A DNA stretch of 13,294 bases from Nitrososphaerota archaeon (GTDB lineage Archaea > Thermoproteota > Nitrososphaeria > Nitrososphaerales > Nitrosopumilaceae), in assembly GCA_002317795.1 (NCBI GenBank), contig NVWC01000001.1:237787-251080 (forward strand), given 5' to 3'. Both the position numbers and the translations under genes were made by a program. Of this stretch, positions 1-13,294 are shown piece after piece (position 1 is the stretch's first letter; every line of letters begins with the position of its first letter). The notes under the pieces are model-generated. The model had not been told where the DNA came from and searched no databases. It worked only from the letters and a program-made list of their open reading frames with translations.

Positions 1-2232
1 TGAGTAAGGGAATCCGTTTGTCAAACCATCGATAGTTGTAGTTAATGCAGGTGCATTGACAGTTACAGTTTGTGTGTCTCCACTTGGGTCATCATATGTG
101 ATTGTGTAAGATACAATATCACCACTGCCAGCTGGATCAGCTGGGGTCCAAGTTAATACAACTTCGCCATCGCCAACTGTAGCTGTTGGTGCTGCCATTT
201 GTGCAGGTGAACCAAGTGGAGTTGCAGTTACTGGTAGTGATGGAGTGGAACCTTCAGCATTAATTGCAGTAAGAGTAAAAGAGTATTCATGACCGTTTAT
301 CAGTGAAGTTGCAGAATAATCAATAGTATCGTCTGCTAAAGATACATCAGGGAAAACATCATCAGAGGTAACATCAGTTATGCTTAAAGTATAACCAGTT
401 AATGAAGAGCCACCATCAAATGGTGCAGTCCATGTAAGGGATACAGTAGAATCACCCACAACAGGAGTATTCAAAATAGGAGCATCAGGAATGGTAATTG
501 GGATTGCAATTTCAACAACAGATGATAAAAGACTATCACCGATAATGTTTGTAGAGAATACTCTAAAGTAGTATGTATCTCCATTAAGTAAACCAGTTAC
601 AGTAAATGTTGTAGTTAGAGATTCATCATCTCCAATAGTTTCAGAACCTAAAATAGTTGAAAAATTGTTTGTAGACCATTCAAGACGATAAGATGTAATT
701 GATTCACCACCATTTTCAACAGTAGTCCAATCTACTTGAACTTGAGAATTACCAGGTGTCAACGGAGTAGTAATTACAGGAGCATCAGGGAATGTAGCAG
801 GAGTTACAGATACCTCATTTGAGGTAGGACCATCGCCTAAATCATTATGAGCATAAACTCTAAATGAATATGGAGTACCATTATCAAGACCAATTACAGG
901 TACATCTGTTGTATCAGTAGATACAGGATCAGTGTAAGGAGCCCAACCAGAACCAGAATTAATTTCTATAATATAATCATCAATTGGGAATCCAAAATTA
1001 GAAGGAGCAGTCCAAGTAAGTAATACTTGAGTATTTCCTCGTACTACTTGCAAGTCATTTATTTGACCAGGAACTGAACCAGGAGTAGCTAAAATAGGAA
1101 TTGATGTGACACCAAATCCATGGATATTGTGAGCTTTTACTCTAAAGGAGTATTCATCACCATTATCTAAACCAGTGACAGATATTGTATTAGATAAATT
1201 ATTTGGAGCATCATTTACTTCAGTCCAAGAACCTAGTGGTGGAAGATATTCTATAACATAATCATCAAGTGTTGTACCACCATCAAATGGAGTAGACCAA
1301 GTTAAGGTTACAAATGAATCACCAGTTATAGTAAGTAAATCATCAATGAGTGGTGCATCTGGAACAGTAGAAGGTGTTGCATCTAATGTGTTTGATGGAG
1401 TACCAGGTCCATTTGCATTGTATGCAGTTACTCTAAAGGTGTATTCCACACCATTACTCAAACCAGTGACAGTAGTTTCAGTAAGTGGAGGAGTGCCAAG
1501 AATATCTTTTGAAGGTGTGTTTATATCAAAAGTTCCATCATCAGAATATTCTACAACATATTTTGTAATACCAGAACCGCCATCATCAGGGGCATCCCAA
1601 TCAACAAAGACTTGAGCATTACCAGGTGTTGCAGTATGCAAGAATGGTGCATCAGCAATAGATGTTGGTGTTGCAGAAATAGAGTTTGAGAATATACCCT
1701 CACCTGCAGAGTTTACAGCTTTAACTTTAAAGGAGTAAGTGACACCATTATCTAAATCATTTACAGGAACATCAGTATTATCATCACTTTCAGCATCAAA
1801 ATATTCAACAAAACCATTACCATAATCTACAAAGATAATATAATCAGTAATTGGTGCGCCATTTGTTGCAGGAATAGTCCATGTAAGTAATACTTGTTGA
1901 TTACCACCAACAGCGCTAGTAATTTCAGGTTGGCCAGGGACTCCTGCAGGGGTTGCAATATCTTCATTTGATGCAGGACTAGTTCCCTCATTGTTTACTG
2001 CAAATACTCTAAATGTATGCTCTACACCATTAACTAAATTAAGAATAGTTGTGGTTGTTCCAGTGCCAGGACCATCACCATATAAAACAAATCCAGCACC
2101 GTCATTGTAATCAACTTCTACAAGATAGTCATCAATTGATTCTCCACCATTACTAGCAGGTGTAGCCCAAGATAGTGAAACTTGTTCATCTCCAGGAGTT
2201 GCAACTAAGTTAATTGGAGCACTAGGAGGACC
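1..2232 (-). repeat. Tandem FN3 stalk (domains 5-12, about 95 aa each, last one partial)
   Basis: Conserved FN3 Trp codons at about 2167, 1879, 1597, 1297, 1012, 727, 430 and 148, spaced about 282-300 nt apart. The units are diverged at DNA level. Confidence 0.9.
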
Positions 2233-5200
2233 TTGCTCTAAGCTAAATGTGATGTATAATTTTGGAGATTTACTTGGGGATTGATCATAAGAGTATGCAT
2301 CTCTATCATTATCATTATTTATTTCCTCAAAAATTAATACAATAGAATTATTAGATTCCCAATTTGCTCTGTCAATAATTTCTTGAAGAATTGTTTTAAG
2401 GTCAGGAGTTCGTGTGTCTTGTCCTACTTCATCTTCAGACCATTCTGAAATACTCCAAATGATAGTTGCATCAGTTGAAACTCTTGAAGAGATATTGTTT
2501 GAAGTATCAGTAAATGTTGGAGCATTATCAATGTCCTGTCCATAAATTGTTACAGAAGCTGAACCAGATTCATTTTCTTCGGAGGTAAACTCTACATATG
2601 CATTTGAAATTGTAGAGCCTGCAGGGATAGTAATTCCATTAAATCGTAAACCTACATGACTTGCATCATCTAAATCAAGATCACTACTATCAAGATCTAT
2701 TTCATTAGATTCATCATCTCCATCAGCTTGTTCTGCATCATCAGAAGAGTGGGTGATTTGTTTAATGAGAATTGTTGATATAGATGGAGTGGCAGTTGCA
2801 ATATTTGATACGGGTCCAATTCCAATAGAGTTTTCAGCAGATACTCTAAACTCATATTCTGAGTCATTAGTTAGACCAGTTACTGTTACAAAAGTGTCAG
2901 TACTTGGATCATGATTAAATGTAGACCAACCTCCAGAAGTTAGACGATATTCTATAAGGTAATCAGTAATTGGTAAGCCGCCATTGTATGGAGCAGTCCA
3001 AGTAAGTGAAACTTCCTGATTACCTGCTGTTACTACCAAGCTAACTGGGGCTGCAGGAGCAGTTATTGGAACAGTGTATGAGATGACAAGTAATGGTGCT
3101 TTGTTTGAATCACCGTCATGTGATTCTGCAGTTCGTTGTCCAGTACCTGAAATAATTATAGAAATAGAATTACCAGAATTCCAACCTGCTCTGTCAATTA
3201 CTTCTTGAATTACAGTTTTCAAGTCAGGAGTCTTTTGATCATCACCTGCAGCACCAACATTATTCCATGCAACTGGATTCCAAGAAACATTAGCTGTAGT
3301 TTTTGTTCTAGATGAAATGTTATCATCATCATCATCAAATCTTAAAGAATTATCAGTATCTTCTGCAAAAATTGTAAGATTTGTTGATTCACTATCAATC
3401 TCATCTACAGTAAATTGTACATGTGCACTAGTAATTATTGCAGTTGAAGGAATTGTGATACCATTAAATCTCATTCCAATTTCTTGTGTACCACCATCTT
3501 CAGTTAATTCTAAATCACTACTATCAAGATACATATCTCCAGTATTGCTACCTTCACGATCTTCTTCTGCATCATCGTCATTATGATTTACTCTAACTTC
3601 AATAACATTAGCAGGATTTGGAGTAGCAAGTATTGGTAGAGTGTATGAACCAGATCCAAGAGAGTTTATTGCAGCAACACGGAAAGAGTATTCTTGATTA
3701 TTTGTAAGACCAGTAACTGTTTGATTAACAGAATCATCACCATGTGCAACTACAATCCAGTTTGAGCCATCAACACTATACTCTACAAGATAATCAGTAA
3801 TTGTAGAACCACCATCAGATGGTGCAGTCCAAGTAAGTAACACTTGAGTATCATCTACAATTGCAGATAAATTAGTTGGAGTTCCAGGGACAGTGACACC
3901 AGCAACAGGGGTTTCAGTTACAGTGCTAGATTCAGTTCCAGAACCAATAGAGTTTACTGCAATTATTCTAAACTCATATTCAACATCATTAGTTAGGCCA
4001 GTAACTGTTTCAGTGGTAGTATTATCACCATGAGAAAATATAATCCATAGATTTGAAGATGCCCCAATTGTAATACTGTTAACTTTGTCAAATTCTCCAT
4101 TATCATCACCGTCATCACCAAATTGGGATTGGTAAACTCCTGCAGAGTTGAAAACTTGAACTCTGTGATTATCAGTATCAGTGACATAGATGTTACCAGA
4201 TGAGTCTACTGCAACATCTCTTGGTTTCTTAAATTCTCCATTATCATCACCGTCATCACCAAATTGGGATTGGTAAACTCCTGCAGAGTTGAAAACTTGA
4301 ACTCTGTGATTATCTTTGTCAGTGACATAGATGGTACCAGAGCCATCAACTACAATACCATGTGGTTTCTTAAATTCTCCATTATCAGTACCTTCATCAC
4401 CAAATTGTGATTCATATGTACCTGCAAGAGAAAATTTTTGTACACGATGATTATATTCTTCAGTGACAAATACACTAGAACCTGAAATAAATAATGCAAT
4501 TGGTTTCTTTAGTTCTCCATTACCACTACCTTCACTACCAAATTGGAATTGATAAACTCCTGCAGAGTTGAAAACTTGAACTCGGTGATTATCAGTATCA
4601 GTGACATAGATGTTACCAGATGAGTCTACTGCAACATCTCTTGGTTTCTTAAATTCCCCATTACCAGTACCTTCATCACCAATTGTCAATAAATGAGTTC
4701 CAGATGATGAGAATTTTTGTACACGATGATTATCATAATCAGCTACAAAGACATTACCTGAATTATCAACAAAGATTCCATGAGGTTTATCAAATTCTCC
4801 ATCACTATCACCTTCATCACCAAATTGGAATTGATAAACTCCTGCAGAGTTGAAAACTTGAACTCTGTGATTATCTTTGTCAGTGACATAGATGTTACCA
4901 GAACTAGATGTACTGGTTTCTCTATATTGAATTGTATAATCAGTGATTGGAGAACCACCATCTGATGGAGCAGTCCAGGATAATGTCACTTGCTCATTGC
5001 CTGCAGTTGCAGTTAATCCAACAGGAATACCAGGTACAGTTGCACTATCTTGAGGGATACTAGTTACAATACTTGATGCATCACTTGTTGCAGCACCATT
5101 AACTGCAAATACTCTAAATTCATACTCTACATCATTTGTAAGATATGTAACAATAGAACTAGGAGTAGTTCCTGCACCATCAGGGAATACAAGCCAATCA

Positions 5201-6486
5201 TTACTAGCACATTCACCAACTGTATCTCCATGTTGAGAAACATGAGTATTAACTGCAGAATCTCCAATTACAATTGTATGTGCATTAGATGGATTTCCAG
5301 GAGGAACATGGCAAACAGCAGTAAAACCAGATGGAGTTGTTGTGGTAGTAGGTCGATATTCTATAATATAATCAGTTAGAGTGCCAGAAGTGGCAGTCCA
5401 AGATAGTGTTACTTGTTCATTTCCTGCAGTTGCAGTTAATCCAGTTGGTGCGTCAGGTACAGATGTGGAAGCAAGTAGATTATTTTGGAATTTGTGGACT
5501 CTATTATTTTTAGTATCAGTTACATAAAATGTACTAGTTCCAGACTCAAATGCTATACCTCTAGGACCATCATTACCAAACTGACTATTTCCTGATCCTT
5601 TTGTTCCATATTTTGTTAAAAAGTTACCAGATGAATCATATGCTACAATTCTCTCATTGTTAGTATCTGCAATCCAAACATTATCAAAAGAATCAATTGT
5701 AATTCCACGAGGACTTTTTAATCTGTCATCACCAGAACCGTTACTACCAAATTTTAACAAAAAGTTACCAGAAGAATCAAATTTTTGAACTCTGTCTTTT
5801 TCAATGTCAGAAACCCAAATATTTCCTGAGGAATCTACTGCAATTCCATATGGACCATCATTACCAAACTGACTATTTCCATTTCCCTTACTGCCAAAGG
5901 TCAGTAAATAATTTCCATTAGAATCATATTTTTTGATTTTTTCATTTTTAGTATCTGCAACATAAACATTATCTGAGGAATCAACTGCAATTCCACTTGG
6001 TTGATTAAATTTAGTATTAGTATCACCAGAACTACTACCAACACTTAGCAAAAAGTTTCCAGAAGAATCAAACTTTTTAATTTTATGAGCTTTAGTGTCA
6101 GTTATCCAAAAGTTATCACCAGAGTCTACTGCAACATCACGTGGCCCATTATTTTTAAACTGACTATCACCATTTCCATTTGAACCAATTAATAAAATGA
6201 AATTTCCAGAAGATGAAAATTTTTGAGCATGTTCATTTTTGTAATCCATCACCCATACATTACCTGAAGAATCAACATCAATTCCCCATGGACCATTATC
6301 TCCAAATTCACCATTCCCATTTCCTTTACTACCAAAAGTATCAAGATATGTTGGAGCCGGATTTGTTTGTGCAAATGCCTGCGGGATTGGTTCTGAAAAA
6401 GGAAGAGCTGCTGGCGGGACTAACAGTATTACAGCTAGCAATACAATTACAAGACGATCTAAAACTACACTCCAATTGTGTCCCAT
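1..6486 (-). CDS. Giant secreted surface protein / putative adhesin (NHL propellers, >=12 FN3 domains, 2 acidic DNRLRE/CBM96-like domains); 3'-truncated by the window, >=2162 aa
   Basis: Manual translation from ATG at 6486 (MGHNWSVVLDRLVIVLLAVILLVPPAALPFSEPIPQAFAQTNP...) finds no in-frame stop down to base 1 (...TTIDGLTNGFPYS). It is probably missing from the ORF track because its stop codon lies outside the window. Contains repeated FN3 signatures (VxLTWxxPxxGGxxITDYxxEY...VTGLxNGxxYxFRVxAxN) and NHL signatures (PxGIAVDSSGNxYVxDxxNxRVQKF). Confidence 0.95.
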   Translation of the reverse strand, partial: MGHNWSVVLDRLVIVLLAVILLVPPAALPFSEPIPQAFAQTNPAPTYLDTFGSKGNGNGEFGDNGPWGIDVDSSGNVWVMDYKNEHAQKFSSSGNFILLIGSNGNGDSQFKNNGPRDVAVDSGDNFWITDTKAHKIKKFDSSGNFLLSVGSSSGDTNTKFNQPSGIAVDSSDNVYVADTKNEKIKKYDSNGNYLLTFGSKGNGNSQFGNDGPYGIAVDSSGNIWVSDIEKDRVQKFDSSGNFLLKFGSNGSGDDRLKSPRGITIDSFDNVWIADTNNERIVAYDSSGNFLTKYGTKGSGNSQFGNDGPRGIAFESGTSTFYVTDTKNNRVHKFQNNLLASTSVPDAPTGLTATAGNEQVTLSWTATSGTLTDYIIEYRPTTTTTPSGFTAVCHVPPGNPSNAHTIVIGDSAVNTHVSQHGDTVGECASNDWLVFPDGAGTTPSSIVTYLTNDVEYEFRVFAVNGAATSDASSIVTSIPQDSATVPGIPVGLTATAGNEQVTLSWTAPSDGGSPITDYTIQYRETSTSSSGNIYVTDKDNHRVQVFNSAGVYQFQFGDEGDSDGEFDKPHGIFVDNSGNVFVADYDNHRVQKFSSSGTHLLTIGDEGTGNGEFKKPRDVAVDSSGNIYVTDTDNHRVQVFNSAGVYQFQFGSEGSGNGELKKPIALFISGSSVFVTEEYNHRVQKFSLAGTYESQFGDEGTDNGEFKKPHGIVVDGSGTIYVTDKDNHRVQVFNSAGVYQSQFGDDGDDNGEFKKPRDVAVDSSGNIYVTDTDNHRVQVFNSAGVYQSQFGDDGDDNGEFDKVNSITIGASSNLWIIFSHGDNTTTETVTGLTNDVEYEFRIIAVNSIGSGTESSTVTETPVAGVTVPGTPTNLSAIVDDTQVLLTWTAPSDGGSTITDYLVEYSVDGSNWIVVAHGDDSVNQTVTGLTNNQEYSFRVAAINSLGSGSYTLPILATPNPANVIEVRVNHNDDDAEEDREGSNTGDMYLDSSDLELTEDGGTQEIGMRFNGITIPSTAIITSAHVQFTVDEIDSESTNLTIFAEDTDNSLRFDDDDDNISSRTKTTANVSWNPVAWNNVGAAGDDQKTPDLKTVIQEVIDRAGWNSGNSISIIISGTGQRTAESHDGDSNKAPLLVISYTVPITAPAAPVSLVVTAGNQEVSLTWTAPYNGGLPITDYLIEYRLTSGGWSTFNHDPSTDTFVTVTGLTNDSEYEFRVSAENSIGIGPVSNIATATPSISTILIKQITHSSDDAEQADGDDESNEIDLDSSDLDLDDASHVGLRFNGITIPAGSTISNAYVEFTSEENESGSASVTIYGQDIDNAPTFTDTSNNISSRVSTDATIIWSISEWSEDEVGQDTRTPDLKTILQEIIDRANWESNNSIVLIFEEINNDNDRDAYSYDQSPSKSPKLYITFSLEQGPPSAPINLVATPGDEQVSLSWATPASNGGESIDDYLVEVDYNDGAGFVLYGDGPGTGTTTTILNLVNGVEHTFRVFAVNNEGTSPASNEDIATPAGVPGQPEITSAVGGNQQVLLTWTIPATNGAPITDYIIFVDYGNGFVEYFDAESDDNTDVPVNDLDNGVTYSFKVKAVNSAGEGIFSNSISATPTSIADAPFLHTATPGNAQVFVDWDAPDDGGSGITKYVVEYSDDGTFDINTPSKDILGTPPLTETTVTGLSNGVEYTFRVTAYNANGPGTPSNTLDATPSTVPDAPLIDDLLTITGDSFVTLTWSTPFDGGTTLDDYVIEYLPPLGSWTEVNDAPNNLSNTISVTGLDNGDEYSFRVKAHNIHGFGVTSIPILATPGSVPGQINDLQVVRGNTQVLLTWTAPSNFGFPIDDYIIEINSGSGWAPYTDPVSTDTTDVPVIGLDNGTPYSFRVYAHNDLGDGPTSNEVSVTPATFPDAPVITTPLTPGNSQVQVDWTTVENGGESITSYRLEWSTNNFSTILGSETIGDDESLTTTFTVTGLLNGDTYYFRVFSTNIIGDSLLSSVVEIAIPITIPDAPILNTPVVGDSTVSLTWTAPFDGGSSLTGYTLSITDVTSDDVFPDVSLADDTIDYSATSLINGHEYSFTLTAINAEGSTPSLPVTATPLGSPAQMAAPTATVGDGEVVLTWTPADPAGSGDIVSYTITYDDPSGDTQTVTVNAPALTTTIDGLTNGFPYS
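2245..2775 (-). other. Acidic beta-sandwich-type domain, copy 2 (DDAEQ..SSDLDL..GLRF..IP..SPKLYITF)
   Basis: About 177 aa. Shares RFNGITIP, NISSR, TPDLKTxxQExIDRAxW and the terminal PxLxIx(Y/F) with copy 1. Confidence 0.6.
3076..3606 (-). other. Acidic beta-sandwich-type domain, copy 1 (DDAEE..SSDLEL..GMRF..IP..APLLVISY; DNRLRE/CBM96-like)
   Basis: About 177 aa and clearly homologous to copy 2. The family assignment is from remembered motif pattern, not from a search. Confidence 0.6.
4063..4905 (-). repeat. NHL-repeat beta-propeller 2 (six units of 138-141 nt), inserted in FN3 domain 2
   Basis: Six NHRVQ(V/K)F cores. DNA repeats: 4090-4173 equals 4231-4314 exactly (84 bp); 4133-4236 matches 4553-4656 at 103/104. 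Confidence 0.92.
5209..5313 (-). other. Cys/His mini-module CHVPPGNPSNAHTIVIGDSAVNTHVSQHGDTVGEC inserted in FN3 domain 1
   Basis: Direct translation. It lies between FN3 strand YIIEYR and the resuming WLVFPDG...YEFRVFAVN. Confidence 0.85.
5488..6351 (-). other. NHL-repeat six-bladed beta-propeller 1 (N-terminal tip)
   Basis: Six units of about 47-49 aa with cores MDYKNEHAQKF, TDTKAHKIKKF, ADTKNEKIKKY, SDIEKDRVQKF, ADTNNERIVAY, TDTKNNRVHKF, each preceded by a PxG/D-I/V-x-V-D-like strand. Confidence 0.9.
6370..6486 (-). other. Sec/SPI signal peptide of the giant protein (about 39 aa)
   Basis: Hydrophobic core LVIVLLAVILLV, a Pro-rich c-region and an A-F-A|Q cleavage motif. Confidence 0.85.
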
Positions 6487-6649: not shown

Positions 6650-8251
6650 CTATTCGATAGGATTAATATTTCCACGAATTCTATCACGTGATTCAAATGC
6701 ATCATCAATTGTTTTGGCAGTTGGCTCAATTAACCATACATTTTGAGCATTATCAACTATTAATGCAACATGATTAATTTTAGTGATTTGGAATGGATCG
6801 TCTGAATCATAATAGATAAAGCTAACATCCCATGTCTTTCCTACATCAGAGGACTTTATCATATCAGCCATTAGTATTGCCAAATCTTCATTATCACCCT
6901 CACCTTTGGCAAAAGTATCAAGTGGTTTTTTTGGAGTATCTTGCATTTCAAATGAAGTCAAATGGAATTGAGAAACTATCCACCAAACCTCAAAAATGAA
7001 TTCATCGTCAGTTGGTACATTTGCACGCAAGTCATTCATAGCTGAAGGCATCGAACCTACAACAAATTTTGAAAGATCTCGAATTTCAGTAGTAAGAGAA
7101 GAACCACCAGGACCAACTCCTGAAAGGGTAACAACAAGTGTATCTTGTGGTGGAGGTAGTCGGATTACCTCATCAATAAAATCATCAGTAAGTTTTGAGA
7201 ATTGATATTTGTTGTTTTTGGAATCAACAAAATCCCAAGTTACTGTTTGTTCAGTCATCGTAATAATTGGAACTTTAGGTTTGTCAACTGTTGGAATCTC
7301 ATGAGAGATTCCAGATAATTGATCAAAGATTGAAACAGTTTGGTTTCGTGATTCAAGGTCAATTATTTGGGATTCAAGACTAGCAATTTTTGAAAGTAAA
7401 TCAAATCCCAAGTCTTCTTCTTCATCAGAGTCTTCAAGTATAGCAATCAAAGCTTCAAGTTCTAAAATTCTATCCAAACTATTTTGATCAGTAGTGCCAT
7501 TACCAGATAATGTTTCTAATTTTGATTGTTGTACTGCTAGTTGTTCTTCTAATGAAGTTTTTTCAGTTAGTGCATTTTCTTGCTCTAAAGTTAATGTAAC
7601 ATAAAGGTCAGCTAGTTCTGCTTGTTTTGCATCTAGTTGAGATTCTAGTTCTAGTTTTTCAGCAGCAAGATCACTATCTGAGAGTTGTGCAATCCTATCA
7701 ATCTCATCTTGCTTTTGTAGTAATTGTAATTTGAAATCCTCTTTTTCTTTTACTAATTCTTCTTGGACTTGTTCCAAGTCATCAGATAATTGAGATAATT
7801 CATTTTGTTTTTGAGTTAATTGTAATTCTAGTTCGAGTTTTTCAGCTTGTAAAATTCCTGAATCAGAAGTGGTTGTGGATTTTAAAGCATCAATTTGACT
7901 CTCCAAATTAGTAACTTCATTTATTAATTGAGCAGTAAGTAGTACTGAGAATGATTTTGTATCCTCAATTGTTTTCATTTGCGCTTGTAATACATTAATC
8001 TGTTTTCCAAGCTCAGAGGTTTGATATTCAGATTCAGCTGCAATTAGATTTACACGATCTTGTAATGCACTGTTTTCAGATAAAATTGCATTAGTTTTTT
8101 TTAAAATAATTTCAGTATCAGAGACACCAAGAATTACTGCAGAATATGTTGGAAGAATTTGTTGCTCAAGTGTACTATCACCCAAATAATTTACTAAAAA
8201 TACTCCTGCAACTATGGGTACCGCTGCCAAAAGTAAGAGGTAATTACTCAC
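6650..8251 (-). CDS. Membrane-anchored coiled-coil protein with C-terminal transglutaminase-like (C93/LapG-like) domain, predicted catalytically inactive; 533 aa
   Basis: GTG start; N-terminal hydrophobic segment YLLLLAAVPIVAGVFLVNYL; heptad-rich region at about aa 45-305; C-terminal PLDTFAKGEGDNEDLAILMA...NHVALIVD...WLIEPT fits the GDCED/H/D-E triad pattern with Asn in place of Cys. Confidence 0.88.
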   Translation of the reverse strand: MSNYLLLLAAVPIVAGVFLVNYLGDSTLEQQILPTYSAVILGVSDTEIILKKTNAILSENSALQDRVNLIAAESEYQTSELGKQINVLQAQMKTIEDTKSFSVLLTAQLINEVTNLESQIDALKSTTTSDSGILQAEKLELELQLTQKQNELSQLSDDLEQVQEELVKEKEDFKLQLLQKQDEIDRIAQLSDSDLAAEKLELESQLDAKQAELADLYVTLTLEQENALTEKTSLEEQLAVQQSKLETLSGNGTTDQNSLDRILELEALIAILEDSDEEEDLGFDLLSKIASLESQIIDLESRNQTVSIFDQLSGISHEIPTVDKPKVPIITMTEQTVTWDFVDSKNNKYQFSKLTDDFIDEVIRLPPPQDTLVVTLSGVGPGGSSLTTEIRDLSKFVVGSMPSAMNDLRANVPTDDEFIFEVWWIVSQFHLTSFEMQDTPKKPLDTFAKGEGDNEDLAILMADMIKSSDVGKTWDVSFIYYDSDDPFQITKINHVALIVDNAQNVWLIEPTAKTIDDAFESRDRIRGNINPIE

Positions 8252-8295: not shown

Positions 8296-11200
8296 TTAAT
8301 TTGTAGAATTTGTTTTACTCTCATCCAAGAGATTTTGCATTTTTATGTTTAATTGGCCTAGTGCAGTAATTACAGATTGCTGGAGTGGTTTCTTTGCGTC
8401 TCTTTTAATTAAATTGTAAATTTGTGCTTCTATCTCCTTTAATTCTTGTTGGACTTCATCAGGATTCTTTGTCATGTGTGTTTTGAGTTGTGCCTGAGTA
8501 TCCAAGAGCTTTCTAATTTGGTCCTTTTCATGTTTTATTTGCTCAATTAGTTTGAGTTCCTCATCACCTACTGCAGTAACTTTGGCTTCACGTTCTAATC
8601 GTGTTTGTTCAAGTTCTACTTTTTGCTGCTCAATCAAATCCATTGTTTTGTTAGTGTTAGATTCAGTTTCTTTTGCGTCTCTAATTTTTGATTCAAGATC
8701 TGCTTTCTTTTGTAGAGCATGTCTTTCTGCTAATTCACTTACATGTGCAAACTTTTCTAATTCATTTTCAAGATAAGAAATTTGTTGCTCTAATGCAGGA
8801 GAGAGAATCTTTGCTTTTCTTTCAGATTCTTCACGCTCACCAATTAATTTTACAAGTTTTACTTGTTGTGCCTTGAGTGTTGAAGATAAGGTATTTTGCA
8901 TTTCACGTTCTTTAATTTGCTCATCAATGATTTGCTCCTCTAGTGTACTAGATTCCACAATATTGATGGGTTTTGATTTGCCAAATAATTTTGAAAAGAC
9001 AGATTTTTTGTGCGTTTGAATACTTGGAGTCTGATATGTGGTTTCAATTGGACGTTGTAGTAATTTCTTTTCAAGTTCCTCGCGCTCAATTGATGCTTGT
9101 TCTAGTTTTGTTTGCTGAACACGTATCTTTGCTTCAAGTGCAAAGATGTTGGAAGATGTGTTTTCTTTAACAGTATCATAATCAGCAGAAAGTTGATCTA
9201 GTTCTGCTTGCTTTGATTGTAATTTTGCTTCAAGTTCTGAGGTTTCAGTAGATAAAGGAGTATCAGAAATTTTTGACATCTGATCTAATTCTGCTTGTTT
9301 TGATTCCAAGTCTAATTTTAATTTCAATTCTACATTAGTTGCTCTTTCTTTGGTCTCACTGTAAGTATAGTTTAGTTCTTTAAGTTCTTCTAATTTCATT
9401 TGATATTGAGATTCTAAAACATATTTTTCAGATTTTAGTAAATTATATGATTTTTGAATTGCTAATAATTTTTCAATTTTTTGATCTTGTGCTTTAATTT
9501 TTTGTCCAAGTGTTGTTTTTATTGTAAAAGAATTAGTTTTGAGGTCGTTGTATTCTCCAACAACTTCTTCTAGTTCTGCTTGGGTTGATTGTAATTTTGC
9601 TTCAAGTTTTGATTTTTGAAGGGTAGAATCAGAAGCAATTTCTTTTTCTTGTAATAATTTTTCAAGTTGCATTTGCTGTTCATGGATTTTCTCCTCAAGT
9701 GAGGATCTGTTTGATGATGCTTTTTCTTTAAGATATGTATAGAAATTTTTAATCTGAGCTAATTCAGTTTCACTGAGTTTTAACTTTGATTCAAGATCTG
9801 TTTTTTCTAAGATCGATTGGGATGATTGGGCATATTCTAATCTCAATTGATCAATTTCTGATTGTTTTGATTCAAGTTTTGATTCAAGTTCTATCTTTTG
9901 AGATTTTATCATAGAAACTGAAACTCTCTCTCGGAGTAATTGATCTAATTTTGTTTGTTGAGATTGAATTTTTTCTTCAAGTGCAGATCTATCTGCAGAT
10001 CTTTTCGCCCTAAGATCATGATAAAAATTTGTAACTTGCTCTAATTCAGTTTGAGTAGATTTCAATTTGGATTCAAGTGATGTTCGTTCTGTTGCAAAGT
10101 TAGGAGAATCTTTTTTCTCTTGGAGTAATCTATCAAGTTCTGCTTGTTGAGAACGAATTTTTGCTTCAAGAGAATAAATATCTGAAGACGTGTTTTCTCT
10201 AACGGTATCGTAGTCTTTAGAAAGTTGATCTAGTTCTGCTTGCTTTGATTGCAGTTTTGATTCTAGTGTAGATTTTTCTTCAGCAAAGTCAGGAGAAATA
10301 CCATCTTCTTGGAGTAATCTATCAAGTTCTGCTTGTTGAGAACGAATTTTTGCTTCAAGTGCAAAGATGTTGGAAGAGGTATTTTCTCTAACGGTATCGT
10401 AGTCTTTAGAAAGTTGATCTAGTTCTGCTTGCTTTGATTGTAATTTTACTTCAAGTATAGTTCTATCTGAAAGGAAATTTGGAGAATCAAATGATAATCT
10501 TAAAGAATCAATCTCAGTTTGCTTTTCTTGTAATTTTGCTTCAAGTGTAGATTTTTCTGCAGCAAAATCAGGAGATGAATCTCTTTGCTGAATGAGTTGG
10601 TCTAACTTTATTTGTTGAGATTTAATTTTTACTTCAAGTGAAATTCTTTCTGTAGAATTATTTTCTAGAATGGATTTATAATCAGCGGTAAGTTGATCTA
10701 GTTCTGCTTGCTTTAATTGCAGTTTTGATTCTAGTGCAGATTTTTCTTCAGCAAAGTCATATGTTTCATCATGTAATTGAGTAAGTACTTCAAGTTTTGT
10801 TTGTAATGTCTGAATCTTTTTCTCTAATTCAACTTTAGTTGATGCTGCTTTTATTTGGACTTCATTGTAATCTTGTGTCACTTTTTCTAGTTCAACGTGT
10901 TTTGATTGTAATTGAGATTCTAATGAAGTTCTTTGATCAGATATTTGTTGAACTAGATCTTGGTTTTCTGCTAAAAGTTCTTGTAATCGTGCATGTTGAG
11001 AAAAAATTTGTTCTCGTAATTCTGCTTGTTGAAATTCATTTTGAGCCTGAGAAGTACCTACTGTTTTTTTATCAGAATCTTGAGTTATTTTTTCAAGACT
11101 TGCTTTTTGAATTCTGATTTGTTCTTCTAAGGATTCTTTTTCTGCTTGTGCAGTTTTAGTTGTTGTATCGAATTTTGATGTTAATTGATTTAATTTAGAT

Positions 11201-12441
11201 TGTTTTTCTTGTAATTTTGATTCTAGCATAGATTTTTCAGATTTAATTAAGGCTCCAGATACTTTGTCAGCTTTTAATTTTTCAAGTTGTACTTGTTGAA
11301 GATTGATTTGTTCTTCTAAGGCAGCTTTTTCACTGGATAAGACTTTTGCAAATCGATCATGTTCTGCAGAAGATTCTTTTAATTCAAGTTGTTGTGTTTT
11401 GATTTGATTTTCAAGAGTCATTTTTTCAGAATATGCTTTTTGTTTTGATGATTCATAGTCATGTGCCATTTGTTCTAATTCTGCCTCTTGAGCTCGAATT
11501 TGTTCTTCTAATCTAGTTTTTTCAAGACCTGATTGTTCAGAATTGTTTTTCTTTTCTAATAATTTTCTATCATGAGCTAAACGTTCAAGTTCTGTTTGCT
11601 GCATTGAAATTTTTTCTTCTAATTTTACTTTCTCTAGTTTTGCTTGCTCTAATAATACACGACGTTGGGATTCATCCCTGTTTCGAGTTAATTGTTCAAG
11701 TTCTGTTTCTTGAATTTTAATTTGCTCTTCTAGTTTTGCTTTATCAAGTGCAGCTTTACGTGTTGCGATATCATAATCTCGAGATAGTTGTCTCAATTCT
11801 TGTTGTTGTTCTCTAATTTGTTCTTCAAGTTTTGTTTGCTCAACTACTTTTTTTGATTCAAAATCAGCTTTCTGTTCAGCTTCTATTTTTTCTGCAGATA
11901 ATCTTTCTAGTGCTGCTTGTTGGGAAAACAATCGCTCTTCTAATGCTTCTTTTTCTTGAATGGATTCATTTTTTAATGCATCATATTCATTTGTGAGATT
12001 TTTGAGTTCAGATTGTTTTTCGTGTAATTGATCACTAAAATTCTCTTTAATATTTTTAGGGGTTTGTATTTGTGCAAGTTGTGAATAATATGATTGAATT
12101 AATTGATTTAAGTAATTTTTATCAGTTGAAAACAAAGATCTTCCTTGCTTTATTGAATGAAGAATATATCGAACACGATTAGAATTACCCATACGTGCTT
12201 CAATAATTTTTTGAATTAGTTCAATGGATTCCTTAGAAGTAAGATCAGTTTTCGGAGTAGGGGTTTCTTTTACTTTAATTCCATCAAGTTGTTTTTGGAG
12301 ATATTTTTGATCAGATTTACCAATCTTTTTGTTATTTTTTAAAGAATTTAAAATATGGTTTAGTCTACCTATGTCGCCCTGATTACTAGAAAGTAAAAAC
12401 ATTATCCTAGTGATAATGTCTTCTGTAGACAGATTATTCAT
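8296..12441 (-). CDS. Very long repetitive coiled-coil protein (1381 aa), no signal peptide or TM segment; candidate cytoplasmic scaffold/filament
   Basis: Rich in E/K/Q/L/S, with recurring EKxxLExKLQxKQAELDQL and EKxxLEEQIxxQQxxLExL units. No Walker A/B or ABC signature, so it is not SMC or Rad50. Confidence 0.92.
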   Translation of the reverse strand: MNNLSTEDIITRIMFLLSSNQGDIGRLNHILNSLKNNKKIGKSDQKYLQKQLDGIKVKETPTPKTDLTSKESIELIQKIIEARMGNSNRVRYILHSIKQGRSLFSTDKNYLNQLIQSYYSQLAQIQTPKNIKENFSDQLHEKQSELKNLTNEYDALKNESIQEKEALEERLFSQQAALERLSAEKIEAEQKADFESKKVVEQTKLEEQIREQQQELRQLSRDYDIATRKAALDKAKLEEQIKIQETELEQLTRNRDESQRRVLLEQAKLEKVKLEEKISMQQTELERLAHDRKLLEKKNNSEQSGLEKTRLEEQIRAQEAELEQMAHDYESSKQKAYSEKMTLENQIKTQQLELKESSAEHDRFAKVLSSEKAALEEQINLQQVQLEKLKADKVSGALIKSEKSMLESKLQEKQSKLNQLTSKFDTTTKTAQAEKESLEEQIRIQKASLEKITQDSDKKTVGTSQAQNEFQQAELREQIFSQHARLQELLAENQDLVQQISDQRTSLESQLQSKHVELEKVTQDYNEVQIKAASTKVELEKKIQTLQTKLEVLTQLHDETYDFAEEKSALESKLQLKQAELDQLTADYKSILENNSTERISLEVKIKSQQIKLDQLIQQRDSSPDFAAEKSTLEAKLQEKQTEIDSLRLSFDSPNFLSDRTILEVKLQSKQAELDQLSKDYDTVRENTSSNIFALEAKIRSQQAELDRLLQEDGISPDFAEEKSTLESKLQSKQAELDQLSKDYDTVRENTSSDIYSLEAKIRSQQAELDRLLQEKKDSPNFATERTSLESKLKSTQTELEQVTNFYHDLRAKRSADRSALEEKIQSQQTKLDQLLRERVSVSMIKSQKIELESKLESKQSEIDQLRLEYAQSSQSILEKTDLESKLKLSETELAQIKNFYTYLKEKASSNRSSLEEKIHEQQMQLEKLLQEKEIASDSTLQKSKLEAKLQSTQAELEEVVGEYNDLKTNSFTIKTTLGQKIKAQDQKIEKLLAIQKSYNLLKSEKYVLESQYQMKLEELKELNYTYSETKERATNVELKLKLDLESKQAELDQMSKISDTPLSTETSELEAKLQSKQAELDQLSADYDTVKENTSSNIFALEAKIRVQQTKLEQASIEREELEKKLLQRPIETTYQTPSIQTHKKSVFSKLFGKSKPINIVESSTLEEQIIDEQIKEREMQNTLSSTLKAQQVKLVKLIGEREESERKAKILSPALEQQISYLENELEKFAHVSELAERHALQKKADLESKIRDAKETESNTNKTMDLIEQQKVELEQTRLEREAKVTAVGDEELKLIEQIKHEKDQIRKLLDTQAQLKTHMTKNPDEVQQELKEIEAQIYNLIKRDAKKPLQQSVITALGQLNIKMQNLLDESKTNSTN
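10118..10440 (-). repeat. Recent 189-bp (63-aa) tandem duplication inside the coiled-coil gene
   Basis: 10118-10170 equals 10307-10359 (53 bp) and 10193-10251 equals 10382-10440 (59 bp), both at offset 189. Confidence 0.93.
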
Positions 12442-12743: not shown

Positions 12744-13294
12744 TTATTTATCCTCAAAAATAGGAAGTTTTATGGAAATAATTAATCCAGTACTACTTTT
12801 CATGATTTCAAAGTCACCAGCATGTTCAGTGATTATGGATTTTGAAAGGATTAAACTAAAATCGTTTTCAGCAGATTTTGGTTGTTTTAGAGGACCAAAC
12901 AAATCATAGAGTTCCCCCTCAATTACTCCCCGAGTATCAGAAATTTTTATCTCAAGATTTTTTTTATCAGGGGTTATAGTCTCAATTTTTACAAATCCAC
13001 TTTTTGTTGATTTTAATGAATTTTCAATAAGACTAGTTAGAACTCGCCGCATTCTTGATGCATCTGCAAATATTTTTACATCAACAGAAAGTTTTGATTC
13101 AAGTTTCACATTTGGTGTAGGAGTTTTTTCAAAGTGACTAACTGTGTCATTAATTATTTTATTAATTGAGACATCAGCCATCTCATATTGAGTTTTATTT
13201 TTTTCTATATTATACAAATCCATAAAGTCATCATATAGCATTTTGAGTTGAGATGTAGTATCCTCAATTAATTGAAGTGCTTCATTTTGAGATA
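12744..13294 (-). CDS. Histidine-kinase-like protein (end of HisKA plus degenerate HATPase_c), 5'-truncated by the window
   Basis: The frame stays open upstream of the listed Met (SQNEALQLIEDTTSQLKMLYDDFMDLYNIE, resembling DHp helix 2). N-box-like IFADASRMRRVLTSLIENSLKST, G1-like IKISDTRGVI, and C-terminal LSKSIITEHAGDFEI...GLIISIKLP. Confidence 0.85.
   Translation of the reverse strand, partial: SQNEALQLIEDTTSQLKMLYDDFMDLYNIEKNKTQYEMADVSINKIINDTVSHFEKTPTPNVKLESKLSVDVKIFADASRMRRVLTSLIENSLKSTKSGFVKIETITPDKKNLEIKISDTRGVIEGELYDLFGPLKQPKSAENDFSLILSKSIITEHAGDFEIMKSSTGLIISIKLPIFEDK

Follow-up and report, generated by a model that had tools for sequence, protein, structure and literature searches.

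The second FN3 domain of a giant secreted FN3-repeat protein from a Nitrosopumilus-like ammonia-oxidising archaeon is predicted to be one normal seven-stranded sandwich, in which the C-C' loop is replaced by a whole, circularly permuted six-bladed NHL propeller. We favour, with a probability of roughly 0.68, the reading that this domain is a socket showing the propeller sideways as an exchangeable binding head at the tip of a fibre. As read from the DNA, the propeller is nested, permuted and conserved among genes, an empty site exists, the passengers vary, and the split domains are confined to the first FN3 domains. The window, that is the whole stretch of DNA analysed here, comprises 13,294 nt (G000:C35:237787-251080, G000 being the NVWC01000001.1 genome, GCA_002317795.1) and holds the following parts of the giant gene:

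1..6486, minus strand: 5' part of the giant secreted FN3-repeat gene, with 2,162 aa inside the window and continuing beyond it
6367..6486, minus strand: probable signal peptide (aa 1-40), the sole clearly hydrophobic stretch in a hydropathy scan, ending in AFA-Q
5479..6357, minus strand: N-terminal six-bladed NHL propeller with canonical closure (strand d first, strand c last)
5353..5457, minus strand: FN3 domain 1, strands A-B-C
5197..5352, minus strand: 52-aa insert in the C-C' loop of FN3 domain 1, a small two-Cys module
5050..5196, minus strand: FN3 domain 1, strands C'-E-F-G
4921..5037, minus strand: FN3 domain 2, strands A-B-C (aa 484-522)
4048..4920, minus strand: nested six-bladed NHL propeller with its linkers (aa 523-813)
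3904..4047, minus strand: FN3 domain 2, strands C'-E-F-G (aa 814-861)
3619..3894, minus strand: FN3 domain 3, intact; in the homologous gene L023, the domain at this position holds the small Cys module
3073..3609, minus strand: in-line non-FN3 domain of about 180 aa, copy 1, with the motif DDAEE...SSDLEL
about 2233-2775, minus strand: in-line non-FN3 domain of about 180 aa, copy 2

The initial annotation had placed a break of 873 nt (4048-4920) in FN3 domain 2, and these coordinates are exact: VPGIPVGL begins at aa 484 (nt 5037), TDYTIQYR ends at aa 522 (nt 4921), and WIIFSHG begins at aa 814 (nt 4047), leaving 291 aa in between. It had also foreseen that standard annotation would report two FN3 fragments. 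Indeed, Pfam gives two fn3 stretches in the 378-aa unit (PF00041, 55.4 bits in total, cut-off 25), and the domain carries the strand-B Trp, the strand-C Tyr and the L-x5-Y-x-F motif expected of PF00041. With an HMM of 101 positions, built solely from the 58 FN3 domains of the downstream ORF, the two halves match positions 3-42 and 58-99 with 50 bits each. Removal of the insert in silico, a check proposed at the outset, turned them into one domain of 94.4 bits (103.2 bits if a 7-aa linker was kept), as compared to 68.5-106.0 bits for nine intact FN3 domains of the same ORF. Joined in reversed order, the halves still gave two matches.

An AlphaFold2 model of the full unit, computed from a four-row alignment, reached a mean pLDDT of 86.5 and a pTM of 0.73. 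Its strand order is A, B, C, 24 propeller strands, C', E, F, G, which puts the insertion into the C-C' loop as originally claimed. The claim that both halves fold into one FN3 sandwich likewise holds in the predictions of two folding programs, which yield B-E and C-F contacts and the sheets A-B-E and C'-C-F-G of a seven-strand sandwich. Folded as separate chains, the halves scored 0.89 versus 0.08 for the best control, with the best contacts joining residues 19-21 to 345-347 (B-E) and 36-40 to 358-363 (C-F); the runs agreed in at least 97% of contacts, and partner pLDDT was at least 94. The mark for pairing is one reached by 116 of 157 solved complexes and by 2 of 215 mismatched pairs, and a pass is to be expected from likeness to solved FN3 structures. 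It is very improbable that the halves are unpaired within one chain, that is, that they represent two broken FN3 pieces or a domain-swapped dimer. Such an arrangement could be upheld on the ground that pairing rests on predictions and that the pairing of isolated halves may reflect memory of solved FN3 structures; however, the halves complement each other exactly, none of the core motifs is lost, both halves are conserved across four genes, and strands C, C' and E are hydrogen-bonded in the full model. The linkers between FN3 and propeller have low pLDDT, so that the model does not fix the angle between the two. Structure searches with the full model returned propellers only (best NHL match 6xg7, Z 40.5, rmsd 1.4, 267 residues aligned) and thus did not test the FN3 part.

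The nested layout is not an artefact of assembly, since both junctions are bridged by contigs from two studies. The junction 4920/4921 is crossed by contigs of runs X1, X4 and X5, and the junction 4047/4048 by contigs of X4 and X5, whereas X6 extends just 29 letters beyond the latter. These contigs, from a comparison covering four of the seven listed runs, differ from the window at 0-7 positions. Runs with the best matches may stem from the source sample; X5 belongs to another study. The seven listed runs, obtained by a search of the DNA kind, include no RNA run with this stretch. Contig joints passing over the insert region were excluded; their short side measured 23-26 letters, and the sequence in between was unknown. 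A chimaera of two repeats might be suspected in a repetitive gene from a fragmented, N-containing assembly, the more so as no single listed contig covers the whole insert. Yet the junctions recur in independent assemblies and the layout in three diverged genes, so that we regard a chimaera as scarcely credible.

The insert itself had been described as a six-bladed NHL propeller of about 290 aa. This description stands: Pfam finds six NHL stretches in it (193.6 bits), and its six units, starting at aa 530, 577, 624, 670, 717 and 764, are repeats of about 47 aa that build a six-bladed propeller, as in PF01436. In all four genes that contain it, however, the nested propeller starts with strand b and ends with strand a in place of the usual 1-3 closure, unlike the N-terminal propeller of the same protein. 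It is thus circularly permuted, opened at the a-b hairpin (3-1 closure), and a permuted member of the family rather than an outsider. Among the best 11 NHL structures, seven align only from model residue 65-70 and four from 42-47, whereas the designed propeller v31Pizza6 (PDB 6i39) aligns over 250 of 251 residues (TM 0.88, rmsd 2.8, versus 0.74-0.82 and rmsd 6-13 for the other Pizza6 permutants listed). Closure of the 3-1 type is unusual for NHL propellers. It is not exotic, since both closures are called common in nature and 3-1 closure is stable in designed propellers, according to the accessible part of one report (PMC8458387). We discarded a motif-based survey of closure in 285 runs, which had given a wrong reading of the propeller in the window itself. 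A profile of NHL-type enzymes (SGL; PAL, SMP-30/gluconolactonase) gave no matches other than overlapping ones to the repeats.

Blades 1, 3, 5 and 6 of the nested propeller share 85-91% DNA identity with one another, as compared to 43-65% between the nested and the N-terminal propeller. By these values, the insert is old and its blades have been homogenised internally, and on account of the latter value we rejected a recent origin from the N-terminal propeller of the same gene. The junctions of the insert are rich in Ser/Gly. Entry by microhomology between an FN3 loop and an NHL a-b turn would be compatible with the sequence; it is just as possible that the donor was a propeller that already had 3-1 closure.

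A search for relatives with the C-terminal half of FN3 domain 2 plus FN3 domain 3 yielded 65 genome and 76 metagenome loci, among them five other copies of the giant gene (L021, L022, L023, L086 and L087). Read from the N-terminal propeller, with F for an intact FN3 domain and brackets for an insert, the six layouts are:

window: F[small] F[NHL] F
L021: F, two other domains, F[NHL] F
L023: F, one other domain, F[NHL] F[small]
L086: F F[NHL] F[small]
L087: F, in-line domain, F[small] F
L022: F, F[about 215 aa in B-C loop], F, F[ricin-B fragment]

Every one of the six genes has at least one split FN3 domain, and each N-terminal layout is unique. The nested propellers of the window, L021, L023 and L086 share both junctions, although the genes are only 51-57% identical. 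The propeller is absent from L087 and L022. An orthologue lacking the insert had been named as a further check, and L087 supplies it: the same FN3 domain has a short loop there and represents an empty site, with 80-84% DNA identity to the window on both sides and a likeness that extends through strand C, breaks off at its end and sets in again at the C' tryptophan. In L022, an FN3 domain carries a RicinB_lectin_2 passenger (E 2.6e-21) in its C-C' loop, which comprises two of the three trefoil subdomains, that is about two thirds of a trefoil; the first half of its host domain is 92% identical to an intact neighbour. The roughly 215-aa insert in the B-C loop of the same gene matched no known family (B-C site at L022:1492-2145, ricin-B site at L022:2779-3024, both plus strand). 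The small Cys module occurs in FN3 domain 1 of the window and in L023, L086 and L087. It has the motifs CH-x-PPGNPSN and HGD-x-x-GEC with two Cys, and gave no Pfam family and only weak ESM Atlas matches (none above 0.79). In a model of FN3 domain 1 it is poorly modelled (pLDDT below 50), whereas FN3 chains align across both halves of the host (residues 1-141, Z 14.8, rmsd 1.9, 92 aligned). The two in-line domains of about 180 aa, without a Pfam family above the cut-off, are well conserved in relatives, including their DDAEE and SSDLEL motifs. L021 and L023 are filed in bacterial MAGs, yet have 36-39% GC and 75-77% DNA identity to the window gene; these contigs are likely misbinned, while a transfer is less probable.

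Relatedness of the host domains was assessed in a tree of 80 FN3 rows and 98 columns, into which 12 rows were entered without their inserts. Here, the split domains need 5 changes, as compared to 11.4 with shuffled labels, a value to be read with the unsettled bootstrap in mind and with the gap common to the insert-free joined rows, which may draw them together. One supported scaffold group (98/91) bears NHL, ricin-B and small-module passengers, and another (99/90) bears NHL and small-module passengers. One host of the small module clusters with intact domains from the window and from L087, and this module is also found on scaffolds in differing groups. The tree would fit an exchange of passengers between repeats; repeated gain and loss would also fit.

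The nested propeller has D/E-rich loops and a net charge of -24 (-24, -31, -17 and -28 in the four genes), and is more acidic than the four complete N-terminal propellers (-6, -7, -14 and -6). This charge could speak for a structural role, in which the propeller links fibres to one another or makes the tip stiffer, as a node for branching, dimerisation or cation binding, and the homogenised blades would argue in the same direction, that is against one finely tuned asymmetric site. However, the stalk is equally acidic (14.3% D+E versus 15.8%), two genes do without the propeller, and in L022 the same loop holds a lectin fragment. We therefore consider a structural node unlikely as compared to the display socket.

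It is also conceivable that the insertion is near-neutral, the C-C' loop taking up any domain with close termini, and that inserts are shuffled without selection for display. In line with this, the gene is rare: among 151 genomes of the genus, many of them incomplete, a close match is present in two, G000 included, and three further genomes gave generic NHL matches only, while at the order level a strong DNA match was obtained in 2 of 401 genomes, again many incomplete. Moreover, split FN3 domains with unrelated inserts occur in unrelated bacterial proteins. In a set of 251 proteins or ORFs with FN3 matches, which is redundant and was chosen by likeness to the query, 1,852 FN3 matches were intact and 20 were flagged, namely 15 split domains (13 without two duplicates) and five short in-loop extensions. 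P0254, outside this gene family, has two C-C' inserts of about 215 aa in its FN3 domains, P0255 and P0307 have FN3 inserts of 130-140 aa, and on a bacterial contig of 60% GC a C-C' loop contains a complete trypsin-like protease (L127:2888-3685, plus strand). Hence, the C-C' loop is not solely for binding domains, which we counted against the display reading. Against neutrality, six blades, the frame and both junctions are kept across the diverged genes, and the splits gather in the first FN3 domains rather than being spread over about 70: in the giant gene, two are split, both at its start. Near-neutral insertion is accordingly quite unlikely in our view. Within the downstream ORF, an acidic, partly repetitive stretch of about 290 aa without Pfam match (aa 4969-5257; L174:8422-9288, minus strand) may sit between two halves of another FN3 domain; aa 5082-5138 match the C-half of the FN3 HMM.

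Searches for homologues of the nested unit, crowded out by proteins with multiple NHL and FN3 domains, gave one nested FN3[NHL] protein among 120 listed; two further searches flagged none among the matches listed, and the ESM Atlas returned generic NHL clusters only. Whole NHL propellers inside Big_12-type Ig-like domains were present in 14 of 20 proteins or ORFs with both domain types, up to six or more per giant protein. These resemble the window in placing a whole propeller in a stalk domain of a giant secreted protein, but the closure is canonical (1-3) in 12 of 12 examples read. As both the host fold and the closure differ, the Big_12 nesting is of independent origin, and propeller nesting arose at least twice. 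The giants concerned are P0082, P0101, P0241, P0245, P0259, P0284, P0289, P0300, P0321, P0349, P0355 and P0360, several of which probably share a genome. The literature searched yielded no described family with NHL in Big_12-type domains.

The protein that carries the unit is probably far longer than the window. The window ORF runs into an N-rich join just outside the window (G000:C35:237740-237786, directly before window base 1), beyond which follows a 7,249-aa FN3-repeat ORF, so that the gene is cut into 2,183 and 7,249 codons. The join is flanked on both sides by a 246-nt repeat (91%), the reading frames differ across it, and it is probably an assembly fault. A homologue in genome G071 is a single open frame of 7,210 aa and shows 63% identity, over its C-terminal 875 aa, to the end of the downstream ORF. 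It is therefore likely that both ORFs form a single gene coding for some 9,400 aa and roughly 70 FN3 domains. The signal peptide would be cleaved after AFA. At the C-terminus we found no membrane anchor; which end of the fibre is distal is therefore a matter of inference. We take the host to be a Nitrosopumilus-like ammonia-oxidising archaeon, since G000 contains an archaeal amoA (378 bits) and, among named loci that share the start of this gene, L022 from a Nitrosopumilus MAG lies closest (79% DNA identity, aa 1-373).

A similar scenario has been described for bacterial RTX adhesins, in which split Ig-like domains project ligand-binding domains (available text of PMC12077191). In adhesins of the AhLap, FrhA and MpIBP type, as here, a complete domain whose termini are adjacent interrupts a beta-sandwich of the stalk, the split units are gathered at one end of a long fibre of repeats, and heads are exchanged among otherwise similar genes (PMC12077191 and bioRxiv 10.1101/2025.09.30.679566, as far as available). 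Their host, however, is a BIg domain in which the opening follows strand 1 or precedes the last two strands (available part of bioRxiv 10.1101/2025.09.30.679566), whereas the FN3 domain of the window is opened at C-C', after strand 3 of 7. Furthermore, the window protein is archaeal and has an N-terminal signal peptide, and it has neither type I secretion parts nor, in Pfam scans of the window ORF and of the C-terminal 875 aa, any RTX family. Its passenger is an NHL propeller; the word 'propeller' is absent from the available main texts of both sources and 'archaea' from that of PMC12077191. By analogy, the FN3[NHL] unit would work like an RTX split domain but is not one. In the material covered, our literature search found neither an account of propellers placed within FN3 or Ig domains nor a description of such proteins in these archaea; a mention may exist in supplements or in Graham et al. 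2024 (Proteins 92:933), reportedly where split domains were defined.

Another FN3 domain with a passenger is FnIII-2 of the insulin receptor, the insert of which lies in the C-C' loop. FnIII-2 of this receptor and of IGF-1R is a natural FN3 domain with a long insert (PMC2577065, in its accessible part). The receptor insert is largely disordered with a cleavage site, whereas that of the window is a confidently modelled, folded propeller in a repeat fibre, and domain scans of the giant gene gave no kinase. The NHL propellers of TRIM71/Lin41, Thin and Brat, as well as v31Pizza6, have the same fold as the nested propeller (Z 37-40) but are free-standing or in-line, while the latter is nested and extracellular. 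For Thaumarchaeota, NHL and FN3 domains have been listed without architecture (PMC7848895, available part), and the accessible text of bioRxiv 10.1101/2023.11.21.568195 mentions neither Nitrosopumilus nor NHL.

How the display socket might operate can be pictured as follows. Because its ends lie at the cut hairpin of the two innermost strands of one blade, the propeller would have them side by side and could replace a short loop. The stalk would continue through FN3 domain 2, with the propeller branching off sideways, as the topology suggests, and its opposite face left free. The face that would be free here is the usual ligand face of NHL propellers. The protein would be secreted by means of its cleaved signal peptide and most likely held at its C-terminal end, with the cluster of variable heads at the far tip, where their ligands may be glycans, particles or other cells. 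As sockets, the initial few FN3 domains would take varied passengers, i.e. a propeller, a ricin-B lectin fragment, a small Cys module or none. The variation is seen among the genes; shuffling by recombination between FN3 repeats is the presumed mechanism. In favour of the display socket we counted the splice score, the complementary halves and their predicted pairing, the model of the full unit, the match to the NHL fold, the mixed passengers within supported tree groups, the shared junctions and the empty site of L087, the confinement of splits to the first FN3 domains together with the differing layouts of all six genes, and one passenger of a recognised sugar-binding family (ricin-B), as well as the precedent of the RTX adhesins (PMC12077191, available text). 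Against it we counted the incompleteness of the ricin-B trefoil, the negative result for a C-terminal membrane anchor and the small module's occurrence on scaffolds of differing tree groups.

A more speculative extension, which we offer tentatively and consider doubtful, is that of a natural cassette system with the FN3 halves as its homology arms. Recombination would carry passengers, flanked by strands C and C', from repeat to repeat, giving each lineage its own head set at the tip of a fibre of about 1 MDa, be it a diversifying adhesin or a locus facing phages or grazers; the 3-1 propeller would have entered as a six-repeat circle, through a single crossover at a Ser/Gly-rich turn resembling the FN3 loop. 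New here are the FN3 C-C' host, the permuted NHL passenger and an archaeal fibre with a variable tip, while the principle itself is known. Under the display socket, the split-domain rule, by which a domain budding from a split stalk module is a likely binding head, would extend from bacterial RTX adhesins to archaeal FN3 fibres and would indicate which parts of this marine nitrifier's very large and so far unstudied surface protein are worth assaying. For protein design, the unit offers a natural example of an NHL propeller permuted to 3-1 closure, as well as an FN3 loop that accepts folded passengers of 50-290 residues in nature. In routine annotation, genes of this kind are mistaken for carriers of fragmented FN3 domains.

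Some further observations concern the surroundings. Within the N-terminal propeller, one contig of run X5 omits 288 nt (5564-5851), equal to two blades, where a 29-nt repeat occurs; this may reflect a strain with a shortened propeller or a collapse in assembly. Upstream of the giant gene and on the same strand lie a gene for a 533-aa protein with an N-terminal hydrophobic stretch and a coiled coil (6650-8251), the end of which resembles a transglutaminase, and a gene for a 1,381-aa repetitive coiled-coil protein (8296-12441), both without Pfam match. They are followed, again on the minus strand, by the C-terminal part of a histidine kinase (12744-13294; HATPase_c, E 3e-9).
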